Positions 1 through 33,941 of a DNA stretch of 36,774 bases are shown one piece after another. The stretch comes from a virus (Duplodnaviria > Heunggongvirae > Uroviricota > Caudoviricetes), in IMG/VR virus record IMGVR_UViG_2639762884_000004. One strand, 5' to 3'. The first letter of the stretch is position 1, and each line of letters opens with the position of its first letter. A program made the position numbers and the translations under genes. The notes under the pieces are model-generated. The model made no database searches. It had not been told where the DNA came from and saw nothing but the letters and a program-made list of their open reading frames with translations.

Positions 1-1053
1 TTACGGGGTAATGCCAACCGCTGCCGCCACTTTGTCGCCACTTGGCAGCGTTGCCAGAGGATTGAAACGGAGCGCCGTTTCCAGATGATCCGGTGCCAGA
101 TGTGCGTAACGCATAGTCATTTTTATATCGTGGTGTCCGAGAATTTTTTGTAAGGCCAGAATGTTTCCACCCGACATCATGAAGTGCGCCGCAAACGTAT
201 GGCGCAGAACGTGTGTGAGTTGACCGCGAGGGAGCACGATAGACGTTTTTTCCATCACGGATAAAAATTGAAAATAGCAGTCTGTGAAGAAATTGAACCC
301 ATCAAGCGCCATGATCTCTTCGTAAAGCTCTTTACTGATAGGGATGCTTCTGTTTTTCTTCCCCTTCGTTCTTACAAAGGTAATTCGGTATTTGGTCACC
401 TGTGAGCGGGTAAGATTTACGGCTTCTCGCCAGCGTGCGCCTGTGCTTAAGCATATCTTAACTACCAGTGCCAGAATTGGGTCCTGACGTTTGCAATCAG
501 CTAGTAATTCAACAATCTGCTCATGGGTAAGCCATGCCATCTCTTTTTCTGCGATGGTGAATTTTCGCATGTTCTCCAGTGGGTTCGGATACGACCATTC
601 GCCCAGGCGGGATAGTTCGCTAAAAACACTACTTAGATAGCTTTGCTCCAGGTTAATGGTGACCGGGCTTGCTCCTTTCTTCCATTTCTCACTGAAGTAG
701 ATCTCACCTGTCAGGCGTTTATCTCGATAGTGGGCAAACATTTTAGAGGTTAGATCAGTTGCAAGGGGATTGCCCAGAGCGTCAACCATCAGCAGCAATT
801 TGTCATAGACATGCTGCCCAGCAGTCAGAGATTTACCATGTAGTTTGAACCATAGCTCAACCACGTCTTTCAGTGTTCGACGATCCACTGATTCACCCAG
901 CCAGGGCTTTGCTTCGGTTTCTTCCATCGTGTGACGCTCAAAAGCCAGTGCTTCGCCTTTGGTGGCGAATTGTTTACGCACACGACGCCCACTACGTCCG
1001 GCGGGGTAACATTCGCAAAGCCATTTTCCTGTGGTGAGTTTTCGTACTGCCAT
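1..1053 (-). CDS. int: Tyrosine integrase (P2/186 Int-like)
   Basis: 350-aa ORF; C-terminal catalytic region HTFAAHFMMSGG...LGHHDIKMTMRYAHL is typical of tyrosine recombinases; located at the prophage end next to the att repeat. Confidence 0.9.
   Translation of the reverse strand: MAVRKLTTGKWLCECYPAGRSGRRVRKQFATKGEALAFERHTMEETEAKPWLGESVDRRTLKDVVELWFKLHGKSLTAGQHVYDKLLLMVDALGNPLATDLTSKMFAHYRDKRLTGEIYFSEKWKKGASPVTINLEQSYLSSVFSELSRLGEWSYPNPLENMRKFTIAEKEMAWLTHEQIVELLADCKRQDPILALVVKICLSTGARWREAVNLTRSQVTKYRITFVRTKGKKNRSIPISKELYEEIMALDGFNFFTDCYFQFLSVMEKTSIVLPRGQLTHVLRHTFAAHFMMSGGNILALQKILGHHDIKMTMRYAHLAPDHLETALRFNPLATLPSGDKVAAAVGITP
19..40. repeat. Putative attL core (22-bp direct repeat, copy 1), lying inside the 3' end of int
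   Basis: CGCTGCCGCCACTTTGTCGCCA; matches 33920-33941 at 21/22 positions; flanking sequence on either side does not match. Confidence 0.7.
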
Positions 1054-1058
1054 AATAA

Positions 1059-1078
1059 AGCCCTCATATCAGAGGGCT
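1059..1078 (-). terminator. GC-rich hairpin (AGCCCTC-N6-GAGGGCT) followed on the minus strand by a U-rich tract, immediately upstream of the int start codon
   Basis: 7-bp stem, 6-nt loop; minus-strand RNA reads stem then UUUAUUAUG. It overlaps the GAGGG that would serve as the int ribosome-binding site. Confidence 0.45.
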
Positions 1079-1094
1079 AAATTTAACTGTATGT

Positions 1095-1109
1095 TTGACC
1101 AGTGGTCAA
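1095..1109. promoter_or_regulatory. Perfect 15-bp palindrome TTGACCA-G-TGGTCAA between the KAP gene and int
   Basis: Perfect 7-1-7 inverted repeat; a 1-nt loop rules out an RNA hairpin, so a dimeric protein-binding site is the likelier reading. Confidence 0.35.
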
Positions 1110-1139
1110 TGTATGGTTTAGTTTATTCAAACAATGCTT

Positions 1140-2657
1140 TTAATCAAATGATGTGGCCAGTTCAATTAATTCAATGTAATTATGTAAGGCATAAAAAGAT
1201 GTATTCAGACCATTCTCTATAAGGGCTCCTTGCAAATACTTTATAGCTGTATCACCATCAATAGGGCCTTGTTGAGATATAATCATTAGTGAATTTTGCC
1301 CATTGTTTTTTATACTTGATTTAAGCATGTTTATATTATTAATAAAATACAATGCAACATCTAAGTAATTTATTAATGTTAAATTTATTTTGGGCTCGAT
1401 CTGTGAGATGAATAATCTACTGCTCGCCGTTCTATAGATATAATTGACACCTATTCTTTGCTGATTTGTATCAAGATTTAATTCAAGGATGGCTTGAGAA
1501 ACACCTTTTAAATTGGAGCTTTGCTTTATCGAATCAGTGAAACGTTGTGCTGCATTTCTTCGACCAATTAGTCCATCTATAATTTGACGATCCTTATCAT
1601 ATATAATCATTAGCGAAATTATAAAAATATAATCTACTTTCTTTTTGACTAAATCAGATTTAAGAATGTCTATTAACCTTTCAGTATTTCGGATTGAGTC
1701 TCTTAGATTTAACCCAAATGCTTCAAATACGTTGGAAATATTTATTGAAAAGTCTTCTAATGTTGCTGTTAGTGGGTATGTTTTTGATGTGATATTTTCA
1801 AAATCGGTACCAATATAATCACCAACAACACCATTAATTAAATCTTTAAGTTCAGGTTGTTTTAAAGTAAATCTTCTATGAAAAAAACGGCCTAAATAGT
1901 CATTTGCGGAAAAATCATTACCGTAAACATTCTTGATTGAATGTTGTAATTGATCTGTGTTAGTAGCAATAATAAAGACAAAATTTTTAATATCGAATAT
2001 ATGTTTAACAATCTCTAAAAGAGAAATTGCATAATCTGGCCTGCATCTGTCTAATTCATCTATAAAGATAAATATAGGACATGAAAAACTATTTTCATAT
2101 GCCAACCTAGACCATAACGTTAGTTCTTTTTTTAATACCTTAATGCTCTTCAGTTTTTCCTGGTGTTCCTTCAGCATTATTAATGAGGCTTCTTTGGCTA
2201 TATCACCTACATTATCTACTCCTGCATAAGTCTTGATTAGGCCAGATATGATTTCAGGTAGAACACCTTTTGTAAAGCGTCCGATAGCATGGCCGCTTTG
2301 TATCAATCGAGCATCAAGTTTTCCTGCATATGTTTGCAATTGTTGTGACAAAGAAGAAAAAAGGGTTAAAAATGCATCATCAGAAAAGTCTTGCTTCCAG
2401 GCATCAATGTAAACGCATGGGTGTGCATCTTTTATTGAGTTATAAAATCTCTTTATGAAAAAACTTTTACCAGCTCCCCATTCTGCATTAAGGTTGATTA
2501 CCGTGTTGTTCTTTTGCCCCTTTTCCTTAAGATAAAAATATAGATATTCTGCATAGTGTCTCCGATTAAGTTTGTCTTTGGAAAGAATTTCCTCTTCGTC
2601 GTCTAATATAAAGGTAGTTTCTTCATCCCAGTTCCAATTACAATCACCACATTTCAC
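1140..2657 (-). CDS. KAP-family P-loop NTPase (AT-rich cargo gene)
   Basis: 505 aa; Walker A AEWGAGKSFF and Walker B/KAP signature IFIFIDELDRCRP; GTG start with GGAG 7 nt upstream; only 25 nt after the CI-paralog stop; markedly AT-rich relative to the phage core; no obvious transmembrane insert. Confidence 0.7.
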   Translation of the reverse strand: MKCGDCNWNWDEETTFILDDEEEILSKDKLNRRHYAEYLYFYLKEKGQKNNTVINLNAEWGAGKSFFIKRFYNSIKDAHPCVYIDAWKQDFSDDAFLTLFSSLSQQLQTYAGKLDARLIQSGHAIGRFTKGVLPEIISGLIKTYAGVDNVGDIAKEASLIMLKEHQEKLKSIKVLKKELTLWSRLAYENSFSCPIFIFIDELDRCRPDYAISLLEIVKHIFDIKNFVFIIATNTDQLQHSIKNVYGNDFSANDYLGRFFHRRFTLKQPELKDLINGVVGDYIGTDFENITSKTYPLTATLEDFSINISNVFEAFGLNLRDSIRNTERLIDILKSDLVKKKVDYIFIISLMIIYDKDRQIIDGLIGRRNAAQRFTDSIKQSSNLKGVSQAILELNLDTNQQRIGVNYIYRTASSRLFISQIEPKINLTLINYLDVALYFINNINMLKSSIKNNGQNSLMIISQQGPIDGDTAIKYLQGALIENGLNTSFYALHNYIELIELATSFD

Positions 2658-2682
2658 TATGAAGTCTCCATGAAAAATTTAC

Positions 2683-3606
2683 TTAATGTAAACAACTTAT
2701 AATAACTTTTGCAATAAACTCAATGTCTGTAAGCGAACATTCAAAAGAGTGATTTTGGGATGAAATATAAACTCGTCCTTTAGGTAGTCGAGTTATCATT
2801 CTAAATGAATTCTCTCCATCAATATTTACTAGCCACTTACCATCATGTACATCTTTAAAACCCATTTCACATATTAATTCAGAGTCTTCGGTAGATACTA
2901 CGAATGCATTTTTTAAATTGGAAGGTAGAAAGCATGGGTCAAATAAATATGAGCCATCATTTATTAACTTGCCATTGATTAATACTTTTTTCACTAATGT
3001 TAAAGTATCTTTATTTTTTGCGTTTTTCATTTCTCCTGTACCAAATGAAATCCATTCAATAGAATGGCCCGTTTCTATTGCACACTGCAAAACCCAGTCT
3101 GCAGGAAAAATGTCACGCATGTATCGTGTGGCTAATGTGCTTTTTGAAATACCTAGGTGATCAGCTAATGCTTGGTGCGTTTTGTAACCGTAAGCCTCGA
3201 CAATTCGTTCTATTGTTGCCTTACCCCCTCGGTTAAAATTCATGAGTTTTTCATTATCGAACTTTATAGTGGGAATGTATACTTCATTGCAAAGGCCATT
3301 AACGGCATGTTTTTCAGAATATTGCTCTGATGAAGGAGCAGTATCTGAACCAAGAACTAACCATTCAATTGATGCTCCTGTTTCTATGGAACATATAACA
3401 ACCCAATCTGCAGGAAAGGTATTACGTGCATATCTGTTGGCCATAGTACTTTGGGAAATACCTAGATGATTACATAATGCCTGTCGTGACTTGAAGCCAT
3501 AGGCTAGGAGTATACGCTCAATAACTTTTTGCCCTCCACGATTCTGCATAACTATTGCTTTCAGATCGTTTTTGATATGGCTAAATTTTAATTTTTGAGT
3601 TGACAT
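2683..3606 (-). CDS. CI-repressor paralog with two tandem CI-type N-terminal HTH domains and a CI-like C-terminal domain
   Basis: 307 aa. Residues about 20-90 and 125-190 each resemble the cI N-terminal domain; domain 2 shares the helix segment ISKSTLATRYMRD with cI exactly. C-terminal part aligns with the cI C-terminal domain (FLPSNLKNAFVV versus FLPSTLKNPFVI; DGKWLVNIDGE...ITRLPKGRV versus DGKWVISIDAE...ITRLPGGRI). Confidence 0.75.
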   Translation of the reverse strand: MSTQKLKFSHIKNDLKAIVMQNRGGQKVIERILLAYGFKSRQALCNHLGISQSTMANRYARNTFPADWVVICSIETGASIEWLVLGSDTAPSSEQYSEKHAVNGLCNEVYIPTIKFDNEKLMNFNRGGKATIERIVEAYGYKTHQALADHLGISKSTLATRYMRDIFPADWVLQCAIETGHSIEWISFGTGEMKNAKNKDTLTLVKKVLINGKLINDGSYLFDPCFLPSNLKNAFVVSTEDSELICEMGFKDVHDGKWLVNIDGENSFRMITRLPKGRVYISSQNHSFECSLTDIEFIAKVIISCLH

Positions 3607-3625
3607 ATTTTTTACACCACAACAA

Positions 3626-3641
3626 ATGCTTTACCAAGCAT
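3626..3641. promoter_or_regulatory. Palindrome ATGCTT-TACC-AAGCAT in the 50-bp gap between cI and the CI paralog
   Basis: 6-bp arms, 4-bp spacer; candidate operator or weak attenuator hairpin (AT-rich stem followed by a U/G-rich stretch on the minus strand). Confidence 0.3.
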
Positions 3642-3656
3642 AAAAACATTCCTATA

Positions 3657-4226
3657 TTACTCAAAGTACTTAACTGTTATGCTTATAATTTTTCCAATAA
3701 TTTCGATTTCTTCTTTTTTACATTCGAAAGCCCTATTTCCACCTTCAACTAAGATTCTTCCACCAGGTAAACGAGTGATATCGCGGATTGTTACTTCGGC
3801 ATCAATACTTATTACCCATTTGCCGTCACGAATATCGTTAAACTCTTTATCGCAAATAAAAACGGAATTGTTATCGGTGATTACAAACGGATTTTTGAGC
3901 GTAGATGGTAGAAATTCTTTATCGAAAATATAAAAACCATCTTCCTGCAAGGTTCCATCAGATAATACATATTTAACGACTTCCATAGTATTTGTATTAC
4001 CTGAAGTTTGCTTTGAACCATGTCCGGTCGTGAGCCAGTTAAGCGAGGCGCCCGTTTCAAGTGCGCACTGGATTACCCATTCAGCAGGGAATGAGTCACG
4101 CATATAGCGTGTGGCGAGAGTACTTTTAGAGATTCCTAAGTGATCGCACAACGCCTGTCGAGTCTTGAAGCCATATGCTTCTACCATGCGCTCTATAGCG
4201 CCTCGTCCGCCTTTCTCCAAATTCAT
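3657..4226 (-). CDS. cI: Immunity repressor CI (186-type, HTH N-terminal domain plus oligomerisation C-terminal domain)
   Basis: About 190 aa; divergent from apl across a short switch region; ATG at 4226 has GGAG 6 nt upstream, and an in-frame GTG at 4232 is an alternative start. Confidence 0.8.
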   Translation of the reverse strand: MNLEKGGRGAIERMVEAYGFKTRQALCDHLGISKSTLATRYMRDSFPAEWVIQCALETGASLNWLTTGHGSKQTSGNTNTMEVVKYVLSDGTLQEDGFYIFDKEFLPSTLKNPFVITDNNSVFICDKEFNDIRDGKWVISIDAEVTIRDITRLPGGRILVEGGNRAFECKKEEIEIIGKIISITVKYFE

Positions 4227-4250
4227 GGTCACTCCAAGTGAACTTTTGTC

Positions 4251-4347
4251 TTGACGATTTCACTATGCGATCGTATGTTTATGATGTTCACAAAATACAA
4301 ACGATCCGTATTCGTCCTGATTAATCAACATTAAACGAGGAATGTTG
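4251..4347 (+). promoter_or_regulatory. Lysis-lysogeny switch region: pR-like promoter (TTGACG-17-TATGTT, 4251-4279) and inverted repeat CAACATT-N8-AATGTTG (4326-4347) spanning the apl ribosome-binding site
   Basis: Good sigma70-like hexamers oriented toward apl; a 7-bp inverted repeat encloses GAGG. Operator identity is not established. Confidence 0.45.
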
Positions 4348-4351
4348 CATC

Positions 4352-4573
4352 ATGAAACCTAACATTTCAATCACTCTTACCACGCCTCATGTGACTATTG
4401 AACGTTATAGCGAGCTGACAGGGCTATCCATCGATACTATCAATGACATGTTGGCTGATGGACGTCTTATCCGTCACCGTCTGCGGAAAGATAAAAAACG
4501 CGAAAAAGTGATGATCAACATAGCAGCCATGACCGTTGATGCGCTTTCAGAATGCAATCTAAACCTTAATTAG
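4352..4573 (+). CDS. apl: Apl/Cox-family excisionase and transcriptional regulator (small HTH protein)
   Basis: 73 aa; first gene of the rightward early operon, divergent from cI; HTH-like segment [21 protein letters not shown]. Confidence 0.6.
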
Positions 4574-4605
4574 TTCGATTCTGAAATACATCAGAGGCAT
4601 TGACC

Positions 4606-5115
4606 ATGTTTGATTACCAAGTTTCCAAACACCCGCATTTTGATGAAGCCTGTAGAGCTTTTGCACTTCGTCACAATATGGCGAAGCTGGCAGAACGTGC
4701 AGGAATGAATGTCCAGACTCTGCGAAACAAACTCAACCCAGATCAACCGCATCAGCTCAATGCGCCAGAAATCTGGCTGCTTACCGATCTGACTGAAGAT
4801 TCAACGCTGGTAGATGGCTTTCTGGCACAGATTCACTGCCTGCCATGTGTACCGATTAATGAGGTGGCAAAAGAGAAACTGCCGCATTACGTCATGAGTG
4901 CAACTGCAGAGATAGGGCGTGTCGCGGCAGGTGCGGTTTCTGGCGATGTAAAAACCAGTGCAGGCCGTCGTGATGCGATCAGCAGCATTAACTCTGTTAC
5001 ACGACTGATGGCGCTGGCTGCTGTTTCATTGCAGGCCCGTTTACAGGCTAATCCTGCGATGGCGAGTGCAGTTGATACCGTGACTGGCCTCGGTGCTTCA
5101 TTCGGTTTGCTGTGA
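4606..5115 (+). CDS. cII: CII-like lysogeny establishment activator
   Basis: 169 aa from ATG 4606 (the track ORF begins at TTG 4600); position immediately after apl and size match 186 CII; HTH-like segment [19 protein letters not shown]. Confidence 0.6.
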
Positions 5116-5929: not shown

Positions 5930-6156
5930 TGGCTGATGCAATGGATCTCGTACAGCAGCGCGTTGAAGAAGAACGCCAGCGTCATATCCGTGCTGCCCGC
6001 GCCAAAACGCCGGGCGTATCCCGCGTGCTTTGCATTGAGTGTGAAGCACCAATTCCGCCAGCACGACGTCGCGCCATTCCGGGTGTGCAGCTTTGCATTA
6101 CCTGTCAGGAAATCGCAGAGCTGAAAGGCAAACATTACAACGGAGGTGCTGTATGA
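5929..6156 (+). CDS. TraR/DksA-family C4 zinc-finger protein
   Basis: 75 aa; CIECEAPIP...CITCQE gives two CxxC pairs; translationally coupled to neighbours. Confidence 0.6.
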   Translation: MADAMDLVQQRVEEERQRHIRAARAKTPGVSRVLCIECEAPIPPARRRAIPGVQLCITCQEIAELKGKHYNGGAV

Positions 6157-7010
6157 GCACCATCCTGAAATGGGCGGGTAATAAAACCGCCATTATGCCA
6201 GAACTGAAAAAATACCTTCCTGCTGGCCCGCGACTGGTTGAACCTTTCGCGGGTTCTTGTGCTGTGATGATAGAGACGGATTACCCCAGCTATCTTGTTG
6301 CGGATATTAATCCTGATTTAATCAACCTCTATAAAAAGGTTGCTGCTGATTGCGAGGCGTTTATATCTCGTGCCAGAGCTTTATTTGAGGAAGCAAACAG
6401 GGAGGTGGCTTATTACAACATAAGGCAGGAGTTTAATTACTCCACTGAAATTACTGATTTCATGAAAGCGGTATATTTCCTGTATCTCAATCGTCATGGT
6501 TACCGTGGGTTATGTCGCTATAACAAGAGCGGGCATTTCAACATTCCCTACGGGAATTATAAAAATCCGTATTTCCCTGAAAAAGAAATTCGCAAATTTG
6601 CAGAAAAAGCCCAGCGAGCAACGTTTATCTGCGCCAGCTTTGATGAAACGCTGGCGATGTTGAAGGCGGGGGATGTGGTGTATTGCGATCCGCCTTATGA
6701 CGGTACGTTTTCCGGCTATCACACTGATGGCTTCACTGAGGATGACCAGTATCACCTGGCATCCGTTCTTGAACATCGATCATCTGAAGGTCATCCGGTC
6801 ATTGTTTCTAACAGTGACACATCCCTGATTCGTTCGCTGTATCGCAATTTCACTCACCACTACATCAAGGCAAAACGCAGCATCGGCGTGTCGGCTGGCG
6901 AGAGTAAATCTGCAACAGAAATCATTGCTGTTTCCGGGGCGCGCTGCTGGGTGGGATTTGATCCTTCGCGTGGCGTGGATAGTTCTGCTGTGTACGAGGT
7001 GCGTGTATGA
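6153..7010 (+). CDS. dam: Orphan DNA adenine methyltransferase (Dam-like)
   Basis: 285 aa from ATG 6153; LKWAGNK near the N-terminus, catalytic DPPY (VYCDPPYDG), and [16 protein letters not shown] region, all as in Dam; no adjacent restriction endonuclease. Confidence 0.85.
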
Positions 7011-9421
7011 GTCATGATGATATGAGCAACTCTAGCGGCTTTAACGAGGCCGCTGCAGCATTTTCATGGAACGGCCCGAAAAAGGCCATTAACCCTTATC
7101 TGGACCAGGCGGAAGTTGCGCCGGAGTCTGCACTTTCAAACATGATCACTTTGTACGCTGCCGATAACGAGCAGGAACAGCTGCGCCGCGATGCACTGAG
7201 TGAGCAGGTCTGGGAGCGTTATTTCTTTAATGAATCCCGTGATCCTGTCCAGCGCGAAATGGAGCAGGATAATCTCATTAGTCGGGCAAAGCTGGCGCAT
7301 GAGCAGCAGCGTTTTAACCCGGACATGGTCATTCTGGCGGACGTCAGCGCCCAGCCCACCCACATCAGCAAGCCGCTGATGCAACGTATCGAATACTTCA
7401 GCAGCCTGGGCAGGCCAAAGGCTTATTCCCGCTATTTGCGTGAGACGATTAAGTCATGTCTGGAGCGACTGGAGTATGTACGCGACAGTCAGCTATCCGC
7501 TTCTTTCCGTTTTATGGCAAGCCATCAAGGGCTTGAGGGCCTGCTGATCCTGCCTGAAATGAGTCAGGATCAGGTAAAACGCCTGTCCACCTTGGTAGCA
7601 GCGCATATGAGCATGTGTCTTGAGGCCGCTTGTGGTGATTTGTATGCCTCCGATGACGTTAAGCCAGAAGAAATCCGCAAGACATGGGAAAAGGTGGCAG
7701 CGGAAACCCTGCGTCTGGATGTTATCCCGCCTGCGTTTGAGAAACTCCGTCGGAAAAGAAACCGCCGCAAACCCGTGCCCTATGAACTCATACCGGGTTC
7801 GCTGGCACGTATGCTTTGCGCCGACTGGTGGTATCGAAAATTGTGGAAGATACGTTGCGAATGGCGGGAAGAGCAGTTGCGTGCTGTCTGCCTGGTCAGC
7901 AAAAAAGCATCTCCCTATGTCAGCTATGAAGCAGTGACGCATAAACGTGAGCAGCGCCGCAAGTCGCTGGAGTTTTTCCGTTCTCATGAACTGGTGAACG
8001 AAGACGGCGACACGCTGGATATGGAAGACGTGGTAAACGCCAGCAGCAGCAACCCGGCGCACCGCCGCAATGAGATGATGGCCTGTGTTAAAGGTCTGGA
8101 GCTTATCGCGGAAATGCGTGGTGACTGCGCCGTTTTCTACACCATTACCTGTCCGTCACGTTTCCATTCTACGCTCAATAACGGCAGACCAAACCCAACC
8201 TGGACAAATGCGACGGTAAGACAAAGCAGCGATTATCTGGTCGGCATGTTTGCTGCATTTCGTAAGGCTATGCACAAAGCCGGGTTGCGCTGGTATGGCG
8301 TGCGGGTGGCTGAGCCGCACCATGACGGTACTGTGCACTGGCATCTCATGTGTTTCATGCGCAAAAAAGACCGCCGCGCCATTACTGCATTGTTGCGTAA
8401 GTTTGCCATCCGTGAAGACCGCGAGGAACTGGGCAATAACACTGGTCCACGCTTTAAGTCTGAGCTGATAAACCCGCGCAAAGGAACGCCGACAAGCTAC
8501 ATCGCGAAATACATCAGTAAGAACATTGACGGACGTGGTCTGGCTGGCGAGATCAGCAAGGAAACGGGTAAATCCCTGCGTGATAACGCCGAATACGTTA
8601 ATGCCTGGGCGTCTCTGCATCGTGTTCAGCAGTTCCGCTTCTTTGGTATTCCGGGGCGTCAGGCGTACCGTGAACTTCGCTTGCTGGCTGGTCAGGCGGC
8701 AAGGCAACAGGGTGACAAAAAAGCAGGTGCGCCGGTACTGGATGACCCGCGCCTTGATGCCATCCTGGCTGCCGCTGATGCTGGCTGTTTTGCCACCTAC
8801 ATCATGAAGCAGGGCGGCGTACTGGTTCCCCGCAAATATCACCTTATCAGAACAGCTTATGAAATTAACGAAGAGCCGACCGCTTATGGCGATCACGGTA
8901 TTCGTATTTATGGCATCTGGTCACCCATTGTACAGGGCAAGATCTGCACTCATGCAATGAAATGGAAAATGGTTCGTAAGGTCGTTGACGTTCAGGAGGC
9001 GGCAGCCGACCAGGGCGCTTGCGCCCCTTGGACTCGTGGCAATAACTGTCCCCTTGCTGAAAATTTGAACCAACAAGGGAAAGACAAATCAGCTGATGGG
9101 GACTCCAGAACGGATATTACCCGTATGAATGACAAGGAGTTGCACGATTACCTGCACAGTATGAGCAAAAAAGAGCGCCGGGAACTGGCTGCAAGGTTAC
9201 GCCAGGTGAAACCGAAACGGCGTAAAGACTACAAACAGCGAATTACAGACCATCAGCGACAGCAGCTCGTCTATGAACTGAAGTCCAGGGGATTTGATGG
9301 CAGCGAGAAAGAAGTCGATTTGCTCCTTCGCGGCGGCAGTATTCCGTCAGGAGCAGGCCTGCGTATCTTCTATCGGAACCAGCGTCTGAAGGAAGATGAT
9401 AAGTGGCGGAACCTATATTAA
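7007..9421 (+). CDS. A: Rolling-circle replication initiator (P2 gpA-like)
   Basis: 804 aa; HUH motif in [10 protein letters not shown] and tyrosine motif YIAKYISK; position matches P2 A / 186 repA. Confidence 0.85.
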
Positions 9422-9515
9422 TTACGCGGGTTAACAATTCGTGCTCTTAATAATACCAGGCATATCAGGCCGATGAACGTAAAAAAACGTTTTACATCAG
9501 TAAGATTATTATATA

Positions 9516-9531
9516 CTGTAAATATAAACAG
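9516..9531 (+). promoter_or_regulatory. LexA (SOS) box CTGT-N8-ACAG overlapping the -10 of a promoter for the downstream small operon
   Basis: TACTGTAAATATAAACAGTG; TTTACA -35 candidate at 9491-9496 with 17-bp spacing to TACTGT. Confidence 0.7.
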
Positions 9532-9573
9532 TGGTTATGTGTACAGTATTGTTTTGGTGTCATAGGAGGAAAG

Positions 9574-9762
9574 ATGCAGGACTATTTTTTGGAGTCTTTG
9601 AAGCTCCAGCGCATTGATTTTTTTCTTAAGCTTGTAGCGGCTAGTGAGTGTAGTGATGAAGAGAAGGGGCTGGCTCTGCAGTGGGTTTCTGAATTGACTG
9701 ATGAACTCATGGCAAAAATCAGAAGCCACGAATACAACCGCTCAATGGATGTCATCAGCTGA
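9574..9762 (+). CDS. SOS-regulated small protein, possible antirepressor (186 tum-like position)
   Basis: 62-aa ORF with strong AGGAGG ribosome-binding site directly downstream of the LexA box. The protein is much shorter than the size I recall for 186 Tum, so the functional assignment rests on position only. Confidence 0.4.
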   Translation: MQDYFLESLKLQRIDFFLKLVAASECSDEEKGLALQWVSELTDELMAKIRSHEYNRSMDVIS

Positions 9763-11001: not shown

Positions 11002-11814
11002 ATGGGGCATGCTATGATCTTTCTAAGTCATAATCACCGTGACAAAAGGTTTGTAAGTGTTATAGCGGAAAAACTAGCAGATGTTTATGGGCGTGATAAC
11101 GTATTCTACGATTCTTGGTCTATCCAACCCGGAGAGGGTATTATTGACAAGATGAATTTAGGAATGGAGAATGTATCGTTCTTTTTCTTTTTTGTCACAG
11201 AAAATAGTTTGGCAAGTAACATGGTAAAAATGGAATGGCAAAATGCTTTAATTAAGGCATCGTCCGGGAAGTGTAAATTTATACCAATACGTTGCCAGAA
11301 TATATCCTTGCCTGCTCTGCTTACTCAAACGCTATATATTGATCTTTATTCGTATGGGATCGATGTGGCAATAAGACAAATTATAGATGTCATTAATCAA
11401 CAAAATACGTATATTCCTAATCCTGAGAAGTATTCAAACCTCTCCTATGATATTAAGGATGGTGATGGGGGTAAGATAGTGAAATTATCAGCAATGGATT
11501 TTTTAGAACCAATTGCTGATTTTATGATGATTATGGATAATACAATTAAGCATGATGATGTTGTTGTTATGGTCAATGGAGAAAGCACATTCACTCAGGG
11601 GTTTATTGAAAATGCATCTTTAGAAAATGGTATGAAAGTAAGTGGTGCCACTGTTGGCCTAAATCGGGGGTTAACACCAACGATGCCAATGTATGTTTCT
11701 CTTAGGTTAAAGGATGGTTCACCTTTGAATATATTTGCGGTGCTACATCGAGTAAGTACCGAGCGTTATGCTCCTATACCACATAAAGCCGATGATGCCT
11801 TTAGAGTAAAATAA
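11002..11814 (+). CDS. TIR-domain protein with an uncharacterised C-terminal domain (AT-rich cargo gene)
   Basis: 270 aa (alternative ATG at 11014). N-terminal IFLSHNHRDK followed by NVFYDSWSIQPGEGI and FFFFFVTENSLASNMVKMEW fits a bacterial TIR fold; C-terminal ~140 aa unrecognised. Confidence 0.6.
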   Translation: MGHAMIFLSHNHRDKRFVSVIAEKLADVYGRDNVFYDSWSIQPGEGIIDKMNLGMENVSFFFFFVTENSLASNMVKMEWQNALIKASSGKCKFIPIRCQNISLPALLTQTLYIDLYSYGIDVAIRQIIDVINQQNTYIPNPEKYSNLSYDIKDGDGGKIVKLSAMDFLEPIADFMMIMDNTIKHDDVVVMVNGESTFTQGFIENASLENGMKVSGATVGLNRGLTPTMPMYVSLRLKDGSPLNIFAVLHRVSTERYAPIPHKADDAFRVK

Positions 11815-32513: not shown

Positions 32514-33610
32514 ATTTCAGCTCTGAACTGCTTAACAAAGGCAATAAAACTCCGGCATTCATCATCAGTATTGAAGGCAAGGATATCACCACTGTGCTGG
32601 ACAACCGCCTGATGGGGCTTACGCTGACGGATAACCGGGGCTTTGAAGCGGACCAGCTTGATCTGGAGCTGGACGACGCCGACGGAAAAATCGTGCTGCC
32701 GCGCCGTGGTGCGGTCATCACGCTGGCGCTGGGCTGGAAGGGGCAGCCGCTTTTCCCGAAAGGGGCATTCACGGTGGATGAAATTGAACACACTGGCGCA
32801 CCGGACCGCCTGACTATCCGGGCGCGAAGTGCTGATTTTCGGGAAACGCTGAATACCCGCCGTGAAAAATCGTGGCACAAGACCACAGTTGGGGAAGTGG
32901 TGAAGGAAATAGCCGCGCGTCACAAGCTGAAGATGGCACTGGGTAAAGACCTGTCAGATAAACCCGTGGAACATATAGACCAGACTAATGAGAGTGACGG
33001 CAGTTTTCTGATGCGGCTGGCGCGCCAGTACGGTGCTATTGCGTCGGTGAAAAATGGCAATCTGTTATTCATCCGGCAGGGACAGGGCAAAAGCGCCAGC
33101 GGTAAACCTCTGCCGGTGATCACTATCACACGCAAGGACGTCGACAGTCACCGATTTACCCTGGCTGATCGCGGTGCCTACACGGGCGTAATTGCCAGCT
33201 GGTTGCATACCCGCGAACCCGCGAAGAAAGAAAGCACCACGGTGAAGCGTAAGCACAGGACCGCAAAGCAGAAGAAAGAGCCGGAAGCTAAGCAGGGCGA
33301 TTACCTGATGGGTACAGATGAAAACGTGCTGGTACTTAATCGCACTTATGCCAACCGGAGCAACGCCGAACGAGCGGCGAAAATGCAGTGGGAACGCCTG
33401 CAACGCGGCGTTGCGTCATTCTCGCTACAACTGGCGGAAGGGCGGGCAGATCTCTACACGGAAATGCCCGTGAAGGTCAGTGGCTTTAAACAGCCGATAG
33501 ATGATGCGGAATGGACCATTACGACTCTGACACATACCGTCAGCCCGGATAACGGTTTTACGACCAGTCTGGAGCTTGAAGTGAGGATTGATGATTTCGA
33601 AATGGAATGA
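32510..33610 (+). CDS. D: Tail protein D (P2 gpD-like)
   Basis: 366 aa; position between U and ogr. Confidence 0.8.
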   Translation: MNFSSELLNKGNKTPAFIISIEGKDITTVLDNRLMGLTLTDNRGFEADQLDLELDDADGKIVLPRRGAVITLALGWKGQPLFPKGAFTVDEIEHTGAPDRLTIRARSADFRETLNTRREKSWHKTTVGEVVKEIAARHKLKMALGKDLSDKPVEHIDQTNESDGSFLMRLARQYGAIASVKNGNLLFIRQGQGKSASGKPLPVITITRKDVDSHRFTLADRGAYTGVIASWLHTREPAKKESTTVKRKHRTAKQKKEPEAKQGDYLMGTDENVLVLNRTYANRSNAERAAKMQWERLQRGVASFSLQLAEGRADLYTEMPVKVSGFKQPIDDAEWTITTLTHTVSPDNGFTTSLELEVRIDDFEME

Positions 33611-33700
33611 TTCTTCGCAATGGAGAGCTTTTAAGTTTGCAAAATGGAATAATACGGTATCATTATTGTGAATTTAGCAAAAATGGGGAGAACTCGAAAA

Positions 33701-33919
33701 ATGATGATTTGCCCACTGTGTGGAAGTGCCGCCCATACTCGCAGCAGTTTTCAGGTATCTTCATTGACCAAAGAGCGTTACAACCAGTGCCAGAACATTA
33801 ACTGCAGCCATACTTTTGTTACCCATGAAACTTTTGTTCGTTCGATTGCAACGCCAAAAGAGTCAAATCCGGTTCAGCCGCATCCAATGAAATCAGGACA
33901 GGTGGCGCTCTCTCTTTGA
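33701..33919 (+). CDS. ogr: Late-gene transcriptional activator, Ogr/Delta zinc-finger family
   Basis: 72 aa from ATG 33701; CPLCGSAAH...CQNINCSHTF four-Cys motif; last phage gene before attR. Confidence 0.85.
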   Translation: MMICPLCGSAAHTRSSFQVSSLTKERYNQCQNINCSHTFVTHETFVRSIATPKESNPVQPHPMKSGQVALSL

Positions 33920-33941
33920 CGCTGCCGCCATTTTGTCGCCA
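33920..33941. repeat. Putative attR core (22-bp direct repeat, copy 2)
   Basis: CGCTGCCGCCATTTTGTCGCCA, starting immediately after the ogr stop codon; 21/22 identical to 19-40. Confidence 0.7.

Follow-up and report, generated by a model that had tools for sequence, protein, structure and literature searches.

A captured, promoter-less tandem-domain CI repressor behind the resident cI gene of a 186-like Escherichia coli prophage

The CI protein of phage 186 is the reference repressor that acts as a 14-subunit wheel wrapping DNA. In engineered single-chain 434 repressors, two helix-turn-helix (HTH) domains are covalently linked, and asymmetric or re-spaced half-sites can be recognized. In lambda cI-rexAB, defence genes are co-transcribed with the prophage repressor. 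We analysed the IMG/VR virus record IMGVR_UViG_2639762884_000004, a stretch of 36,774 nucleotides (the window) that is a complete 186-like (P2-family, Peduoviridae) Escherichia coli prophage with some host flank at its far end. Behind the resident repressor gene cI lies a second repressor gene, labelled 'phage repressor protein CI' in RefSeq, whose 307-aa product (the tandem CI) carries two CI-type HTH domains ahead of a CI C-terminal domain. It is well supported that this is a captured, promoter-less, full-length tandem-HTH CI from a lineage whose immunity repressors are of this kind. Within the library searched, we found no description of tandem-domain 186-type repressors or of a prophage with two CI genes; database records label the homologues merely CI.

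The tandem-CI gene was read from an ATG start as an open reading frame (ORF) at 2683-3606 on the minus strand. Its product contains two copies of the Pfam family PF07022 (Phage_CI_repr; E = 1.9e-55, cut-off 22 bits) and one PF16452 domain (Phage_CI_C) at residues 207-302 (E = 1.5e-25, far above the curated cut-off). In BLASTP, the resident cI product aligned to it twice: cI 3-171 with residues 122-290 (169 residues, 56% identity, E = 1e-73), and cI 7-77 with residues 23-93 (71 residues, 58% identity, E = 3e-30). The chain is laid out as an N-terminal extension (residues 1-22), a Q-type HTH domain 1 (23-88), a disordered linker (89-121), a K-type HTH domain 2 (122-190) and the CI C-terminal, or oligomerisation, domain (∼200-307). 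On the DNA, all on the minus strand, the two DNA-binding domains lie at 3343-3540 (domain 1, helix 3 SQSTMANRYARN) and 3037-3243 (domain 2, helix 3 SKSTLATRYMRD), and the C-terminal domain, which by its identities is of the KAP-linked class, lies at 2686-3009.

An AlphaFold2 model built on a 27-sequence alignment gave three well-folded domains, helical at residues 12-86 and 127-188 and beta-rich at 200-306, with residues 92-119 forming a disordered linker (pLDDT < 50). With a pTM of 0.40, there is no confident packing between the domains. The closest PDB entry by sequence is phage 186 CI (2FJR, E = 2.5e-22), a Foldseek search of the PDB with the model returned 2fjr_A (E = 7e-15), and the modelled C-terminal domain superimposes on the 186 CI C-terminal domain 2fkd_A with a TM score of 0.91 and an rmsd of 1.6 Å. 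The tandem CI does not appear to be a self-cleaving repressor of the LexA or lambda CI type, as it carries no significant S24 peptidase domain: it has no Peptidase_S24 match at E up to 0.1, that of the resident cI product stays below the cut-off of 23.3 bits (17.1 bits, E = 0.0046), and the similarity of the tandem-CI fold to LexA C-terminal domains is weak (TM ∼0.5). From the 27-member alignment we defined a tandem-HTH subclass of CI by an MSTxK extension, a Q-type domain with SQSTMANRYARD, a variable linker, a K-type domain with SKSTLA[TN]RY[ML]RD, and a C-terminal domain. The window protein has all of these, and is thus a complete member of the tandem-HTH subclass of phage-186-type CI repressors. 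An earlier note, made from the sequence, had proposed two cI-type N-terminal domains followed by a cI-type C-terminal domain and had named two helix peptides. Profile, alignment and monomer model all agree with that architecture, the domains being CI-like, and the peptides are where they were placed (ISQSTMANRYARN in domain 1, ISKSTLATRYMRD in both domain 2 and cI).

In the other loci examined, proteins of this type stand alone. The tandem CI has 609 relatives in the protein collection searched, and 45 of the best 120 clusters at 90% identity are 290-330 aa long with both Pfam families, from hosts that include E. coli, Salmonella, Klebsiella, Enterobacter, Citrobacter, Edwardsiella and Kosakonia. 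Five of these were looked up in their genomic context (P0002, P0003, P0005, P0008 and P0011, in loci L003-L012). All five lie in like prophages at the rcdA-adjacent site, where the tandem CI occupies the cI position, 88 bp from apl, and is followed by variable cargo and then int; none of the five contexts has a second CI gene. The same solo arrangement is found in Klebsiella phage 4LV2017 (Elveevirus) and in ST11-OXA245phi3.1 (Kapieceevirus). When all ORFs of 95 sources were scanned with hidden Markov models of the three domains, a further 14 tandem CIs came up, each of them solo, beside 79 single-domain ones; two CI genes together were seen only in the window and in its equivalent in the enteropathogenic reference strain E2348/69. 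A scan of species-representative genomes gave mostly single-domain CIs and two tandem ones.

Tandem CIs without the N-terminal extension were also seen (P0042, P0043, P0054 and P0087), with a first domain of another type that is 58-62% identical to domain 1 of the window protein, and these suggest that, judged by sequence, tandem repressors arose more than once.

The array of KAP gene, tandem CI and cI is present in 17 of 5,426 complete E. coli genomes at ≥99.3% identity, from human, pig, dog, water and plant sources. In another 538 of the complete genomes only a cI is present (∼89% identity) and the slot holds a small ORF, and the sequence of extension plus domain 1 is found at a coverage of at least 80% in 94 E. 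coli genomes. The tandem-CI gene is intact in all five genomes compared and is listed as a pseudogene in none of the 17 arrays.

The origin of the gene can be read from a recombination joint located to within a few base pairs. From 5999 to 3616 the window is 94% identical to a sister prophage with a single cI (L002), and from 3614 to 3039 it matches the tandem-CI gene of L003 at 79% identity, over the 5′ two-thirds of that gene and starting ∼11 bp before the ATG. The joint, at ∼3614-3616, is marked by a nine-codon ORF (3612-3641, minus strand; MLGKAFVVV, then stop). This is a remnant of the small ORF that comes after cI in L002: the first 8-9 codons are preserved together with the AGGA ribosome-binding site, and 5 nt separate the stop codon of the remnant from the tandem-CI ATG. 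With the joint only ∼11 bp upstream of the ATG, the tandem-CI gene arrived without its own promoter or operators. Its homologues sit at the lysis-lysogeny switch, but the window copy does not: the DNA upstream of it is the resident cI and the remnant ORF, and the native tandem-CI switch region is absent there. The order is now pL, cI, nine-codon remnant, tandem CI, KAP and int. Thus, a promoter-less tandem CI and a linked KAP gene have replaced the small ORF between the resident cI and int.

The back of the gene has a different affinity. From 3201, inside domain 2, to position 1, the window is colinear with Klebsiella cI-KAP-int modules (L097, 78%; L096, 72%), in which the resident lysogeny module is made up of a single-domain CI (186 aa), a KAP NTPase (504 aa) and int; two more close single-CI relatives (P0047 and P0050) have the same gene order. 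The protein identities divide in the same way. Domain 1 is 64% identical to domain 2 of its own chain, but its identity is 80-91% to the first domain of other tandem CIs and 82% to the CI of L076, which has a single domain. Taken together, domain 2 and the C-terminal domain are 67-72% identical to the single-domain CIs of KAP prophages against 56% for the neighbouring cI, and the C-terminal domain by itself is 65-73% identical to the closest KAP-linked single CIs against 48% for the resident cI. Compared with the sole repressors P0002 and P0003, domain 1 is 89% identical, domain 2 83-84%, the HTH regions 91-96% and the C-terminal domain 35-38%. Since the front matches L003 and the back matches the Klebsiella cI-KAP-int modules, the tandem CI is, on these alignments, a chimera, with extension, domain 1 and linker of the tandem-CI type and domain 2 and C-terminal domain of the KAP-linked single-CI type. 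The differing lineages of the two domains indicate that the tandem architecture arose through fusion of two CI lineages, and adjacent cI genes, as in the window, could be the kind of intermediate from which such a fusion forms. A recent duplication of cI in place is ruled out by the domain identities and the base-pair-level joint. The earlier description of the protein as a cI paralog, in the sense of a diverged local copy, therefore does not hold, as domain 1 and the back half are both closer to CIs at other loci than to the neighbouring one.

Within the tandem-CI lineage, the boundary between conserved DNA and the variable cargo slot lies inside the tandem-CI gene, at window position ∼3039, on the border of domain 2 and the C-terminal domain. 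Among tandem CIs, identities are 79-89% for domain 1, 54-84% for domain 2 and 20-43% for the C-terminal domain, and the C-terminal domain differs in all five of the looked-up cargo contexts. On this comparison, the oligomerisation domain appears to have been exchanged along with the cargo.

We favour the reading that the tandem CI is a heterologous, or heterotypic, immunity repressor against tandem-CI phages, made from the lysogenic operon, and give it a probability of about 0.5 on the sequence comparisons. That its homologues are the only immunity repressors of their phages favours capture of a heterologous repressor over the decoy or sensor of incoming phage that the earlier note had suggested, and import from a lineage where the tandem CI is the only repressor would probably add immunity against that lineage. 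The tandem CI would be transcribed through read-through of the lysogenic operon from pL, and its translation would perhaps be coupled to the remnant ORF. The protein would oligomerise via its own C-terminal domain, and its HTH regions, 91-96% identical to those of the sole repressors P0002-P0005, would bind the pR operators of incoming tandem-CI phages, which use the same rcdA-adjacent attachment site and would compete for it. Besides the KAP candidate defence, the lysogen would gain a second, heterotypic immunity, with effects on the resident switch possible and secondary.

The expression context is consistent with a single transcript. The gaps are 50 bp from cI to the tandem CI and 25 bp from the tandem CI to KAP, and no terminator-like site was found between cI, tandem CI and KAP, the one weak match (3067-3052) lying inside the tandem-CI ORF. 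A separate promoter for the tandem CI or KAP was rejected, as promoter-like matches are no commoner than in shuffled sequence. Since the remnant keeps its AGGA, with its stop codon just before the ATG, translational coupling is possible. The simplest reading would be a single lysogenic transcript from pL/pE, by analogy with cI-int in phage 186, as annotated. The first intergenic terminator-like hairpin (1078-1059, minus strand; AGCCCTCTGATATGAGGGCT plus a T-rich tail) comes after KAP, just before the int start codon, and might attenuate read-through into int.

Several observations weigh against this reading. There is no obvious Shine-Dalgarno sequence upstream of the tandem-CI ATG, nor in the native context. 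Variable codons among five genomes of the same lineage comprise 2 synonymous and 3 non-synonymous changes, too few to show purifying selection. The position of the joint could simply be where an illegitimate crossover fell. The tandem CI may also cross-react with the resident operators. Counts of candidate operators in the window are at chance level, both for TTCAC-N5-GTGAA (4 found where 1.3 are expected, a count of 4 being reached in 6 of 100 shuffles) and for the form of the tandem-CI switch, GTGAA-N7-TCAC (11 found where 8.2 are expected).

The alternative that survives best, although we consider it unlikely, is that the tandem CI is a neutral passenger, brought in on one block beside a selected KAP cargo, with no consequence of its own and destined to decay. 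The colinearity of the block with other prophages from domain 2 through KAP to int, the want of a promoter or operators belonging to the gene, the uninformative polymorphism (2 synonymous to 3 non-synonymous) and the rarity of the arrangement (17 of 5,426 genomes) all fit a passenger. It fits less well that the ORF is full-length, intact in 5 of 5 genomes and pseudogene-listed in 0 of 17 arrays, and that the crossover spared the whole ORF to ∼11 bp before its ATG together with a mini-ORF bearing a ribosome-binding site upstream. The occurrence of arrays at ≥99.3% identity across varied sources also weighs against a passenger, fitting recent spread without proving it.

The next alternative concerns the resident switch, and turns on the recognition helix. 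The resident cI (3657-4226/4232, minus strand; 189/191 aa, 189 from the ATG at 4226), in its native context, is separated from the divergent apl/cox-like gene (4352-4573, plus strand; identified as an ORF and by comparison) by a pR/pL switch region at 4227-4351 (unstranded), which was assigned from consensus matches only. These are a pR-like TTGACG (4251-4256) and TATGTT (4274-4279) on the plus strand and a site resembling the 186 B-type operator, GTCACTCCAAGTGAA, at 4228-4242. From the identity of helix 3 in domain 2 and cI, the earlier note had proposed that the tandem CI binds cI-type operator half-sites and could join cI oligomers; as a modulator, it would bind the resident pR, FL or FR operators and/or form mixed cI oligomers, altering lysogen stability or induction.

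For each CI of the 95 sources we took the stretch that aligns with ISKSTLATRYMRD. The pattern SKST[LM]A[TN]RY[ML]RD is near-universal in the single-domain CIs, across dozens of loci from Xenorhabdus and Photorhabdus to Yersinia; the GVSKSTMANRYLRD form is present in 44 loci, and the exact ISKSTLATRYMRD or VSKSTLATRYMRD forms are found in Hafnia, Rahnella, Yersinia and Brenneria prophages with differing switch regions. The helix of domain 1 is of a distinct Q-type (SQSTMANRYARD) and equally conserved. As the domain-2 helix is the family-wide consensus, its identity with that of cI is no evidence for a shared operator specificity. The shared helix itself thus stands, whereas the predicted binding to cI operators loses that support.

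The resident and tandem-type switch regions are partly homologous, sharing TTAATC...GACGAA and TCGCATA stretches. Both contain TTCAC/GTGAA-like pentamers, which are the half-site of the annotated 186 B-type operators (ATTCAC-N5-GTGAAT), differing in number, spacing and orientation; with pentamers of this type in both, some binding of the tandem CI to resident operators is possible. Palindromes and phased repeats read by eye in the switch regions are plausible but unproven operators, and were not relied on.

Taken as a modulator of the resident switch, the tandem CI seems to us improbable. Besides the identical helix and the shared pentamers and stretches, the one further point in favour is the ogr/pB region, 97.8% identical to that of 4LV2017: if CI controls pB as in 186, one site may serve both CI types. 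Against these, the helix is a consensus also present in phages with different switch regions, the half-site arrangement and spacing differ between the switch types, and the C-terminal domain, the most variable part of the family, shares just 48% identity with its counterpart in cI. Induction would also tend to be blocked by a second repressor that did not respond to the resident antirepressor, whereas the prophage seems to be spreading.

Three further observations concern the tandem-CI phages. By consensus, these phages (L003 ∼5978-6007, with equivalents in L007-L014) have a strong pR-like TTGACA-N17-TATTCT on the opposite strand, whose −35 element overlaps the ATG TCA AC start of the tandem-CI gene. 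The window copy keeps only the −35 half, and the overlap with the start codon may explain the conserved MST N-terminus of tandem CIs. Position 7 of the domain-2 helix (T or N, ATRY/ANRY) goes with two variants of the putative operator region 60 bp upstream of the tandem CI (L003/L007/L008/L013 versus L010/L011/L014), which hints at two or more immunity subtypes among tandem-CI phages, with too few independent lineages for statistics. Finally, the ogr/B-like late activator gene and its upstream region (window 33560-33920) account for the 97.8% identity to 4LV2017 given above, the immunity regions of the two differing; if CI controls pB as annotated in 186, both CI types would need to read the same site.

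The gene downstream of the tandem CI encodes a 505-aa KAP P-loop NTPase (1140-2657, minus strand) that matches the PADLOC single-gene candidate defence family PDC-S20 (E = 4.7e-77); neither the tandem CI nor the resident cI has a PADLOC match, and we found nothing on PDC-S20 in the literature. The KAP proteins of the KAP-linked single-CI relatives P0030, P0033, P0047 and P0050 are 68-79% identical to it, and homologues at 34-79% identity stand directly behind 186-type CIs in Klebsiella, Cronobacter, Serratia and E. coli. The KAP gene follows CI directly in L036, L096-L100, L104 and L106, and lies 0.5-1.7 kb after it in L017 and L025, with a partial match in L034 (Citrobacter, Hafnia and Brenneria). 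In Aeromonas, a more remote homologue (L107) lies on its own by the his operon, with no CI. This recurrence behind 186-type CIs across genera makes KAP a recurrent cargo of the cI-int slot.

Other cargos occupy the slot in sister prophages (L003, L007, L008, L010 and L011; ∼6940-9600 in each): DUF4747 with a 201-aa protein; GmrSD_N with HEPN_RiboL-PSP; 384-aa and 359-aa proteins with an ASCH protein; a 660-aa AAA_15/AAA_21 ATPase; and a 323-aa protein. When the phage collection was searched by tblastn, the DUF4747 cargo was found only in 4LV2017-type phages and the KAP query gave distant matches only. From these contents, the cI-int slot appears to be a hotspot for defence genes or morons that is transcribed from the lysogenic promoter. 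A 2026 survey counts the interval between integrase and primase in P2-like phages as a minor hotspot of defence, with 8% of systems (PMC13586616).

A functional pairing of the tandem CI with KAP, in which it regulates or senses for the candidate defence ATPase as a two-gene system, is the least probable of the alternatives. In its favour, KAP of this clade is directly downstream of a 186-type CI in 4 of the 4 closest single-CI relatives looked up, and the same adjacency recurs at 34-52% KAP identity in E. coli and Serratia, with KAP further downstream or partial elsewhere. The order cI-KAP-int also survives in degraded prophages (L098-L100). However, the slot is directly downstream of cI, so any cargo in it adjoins cI and adjacency is to be expected. 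Sister tandem CIs precede unrelated cargo (DUF4747, GmrSD with HEPN, the AAA_15/21 ATPase and others); C-terminal domains from non-KAP loci are 47-52% identical to that of the window, while those of the KAP-linked L106, L025 and L104 are 38-42%; PDC-S20 is named in the single-gene 'S' series of PADLOC, in which the CI has no match; and the Aeromonas homologue is on a chromosome without any CI. An obligate pairing of the CI C-terminal domain with KAP was rejected on the same grounds, domain similarity being uncoupled from KAP outside the nearest relatives of the block. In its specific form, the idea is that the tandem CI, DNA-bound or titrated by incoming antirepressor or operators, would license the KAP ATPase to abort infection. 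This is a long shot that, if true, would explain both KAP behind 186-type CIs at 34-79% identity and the survival of the pair in decayed prophages. In a weaker variant, the tandem CI would build mixed wheels with the resident CI and rewire the 186-type switch.

The decayed 186-like prophages themselves (L098, L099 and L100, from Klebsiella aerogenes and Cronobacter) keep a 67-aa ORF in the apl position, cI and KAP. Their int is intact in L100, split in L098 and not called in L099; cII is cut short or absent, and next to the module lie portal/terminase fragments or a GmrSD gene.

The remaining features of the window are those of its prophage family. The region is 99.6% identical to that of enteropathogenic E. 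coli E2348/69, where the prophage adjoins rcdA/ybjJ. G+C content is 31-36% over 1001-4000 against ∼46-60% for most of the remaining prophage. The integrase gene int (1-1053, minus strand) forms the distal conserved flank of the cargo slot, and homology common to all sister prophages picks up again at ∼1115-1119, on the int side. On the other side, apl is followed by cII (4600-5115, plus strand) and then by fil and the replication genes. A 270-aa ORF at 11002-11814 (plus strand) has a TIR-like N-terminal region (PADLOC TIR-NLR, 5e-08; PDC-S66, 1e-07; ThsB, 7e-04) and lies in the low-GC (0.37-0.42) gpA-portal interval, which is the classical P2 defence hotspot.

Compared with described systems, the tandem CI shares with phage 186 CI (2FJR, full length; 2FKD, the C-terminal domain 14-mer wheel) both domain families and folds, and in 186-like genomes its homologues likewise diverge from apl and precede int. 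It differs in having two HTH domains per chain, a disordered linker of ∼30 residues and a 22-residue N-terminal extension, in an identity of ∼28%, and in that the window copy is not beside a pR/pL switch. Two different HTH domains per subunit would double the DNA-binding heads and, judged from sequence, could read asymmetric or differently spaced half-sites, which tests the reach of the wheel model. Engineered single-chain 434 repressors also have linked HTH domains, but the window protein is natural, keeps an oligomerisation domain and draws its two domains from different CI lineages.

The closest relatives in architecture are 4LV2017 gp03 (YP_009789826), the CI of the Kapieceevirus ST11-OXA245phi3.1 and the E. 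coli and Salmonella proteins P0002-P0011, with identities of 79-89% in domain 1, 67-84% in domain 2 and 83-96% in the HTH regions. Those are sole repressors with their own switch, whereas that of the window is a second, promoter-less copy behind another cI, and its C-terminal domain, at 30-40% identity, is of a different class. In the tandem-CI lineage, the slot boundary within the repressor gene suggests that the oligomerisation domain is exchanged along with the defence cargo. The single-CI plus KAP modules of Klebsiella and Cronobacter (P0030, P0033, P0047 and P0050) are colinear with the window in domain 2, C-terminal domain, KAP and int at 72-78% nucleotide identity, but lack the extension, domain 1 and linker, and each of their CIs is the resident repressor. 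The prophage, as also found in E2348/69, is thus a natural construct with two CI classes, with different oligomerisation domains, in one predicted operon. It makes testable the heterotypic immunity between phages that compete for one attachment site, the degree to which repressor oligomers are insulated from each other, and an origin of tandem repressors by fusion of adjacent cI genes. As in lambda cI-rexAB and the P2-family integrase-primase hotspot, cargo lies directly downstream of cI in the lysogenic operon; the cargo block of the window differs from these in that it also carries a second repressor gene.

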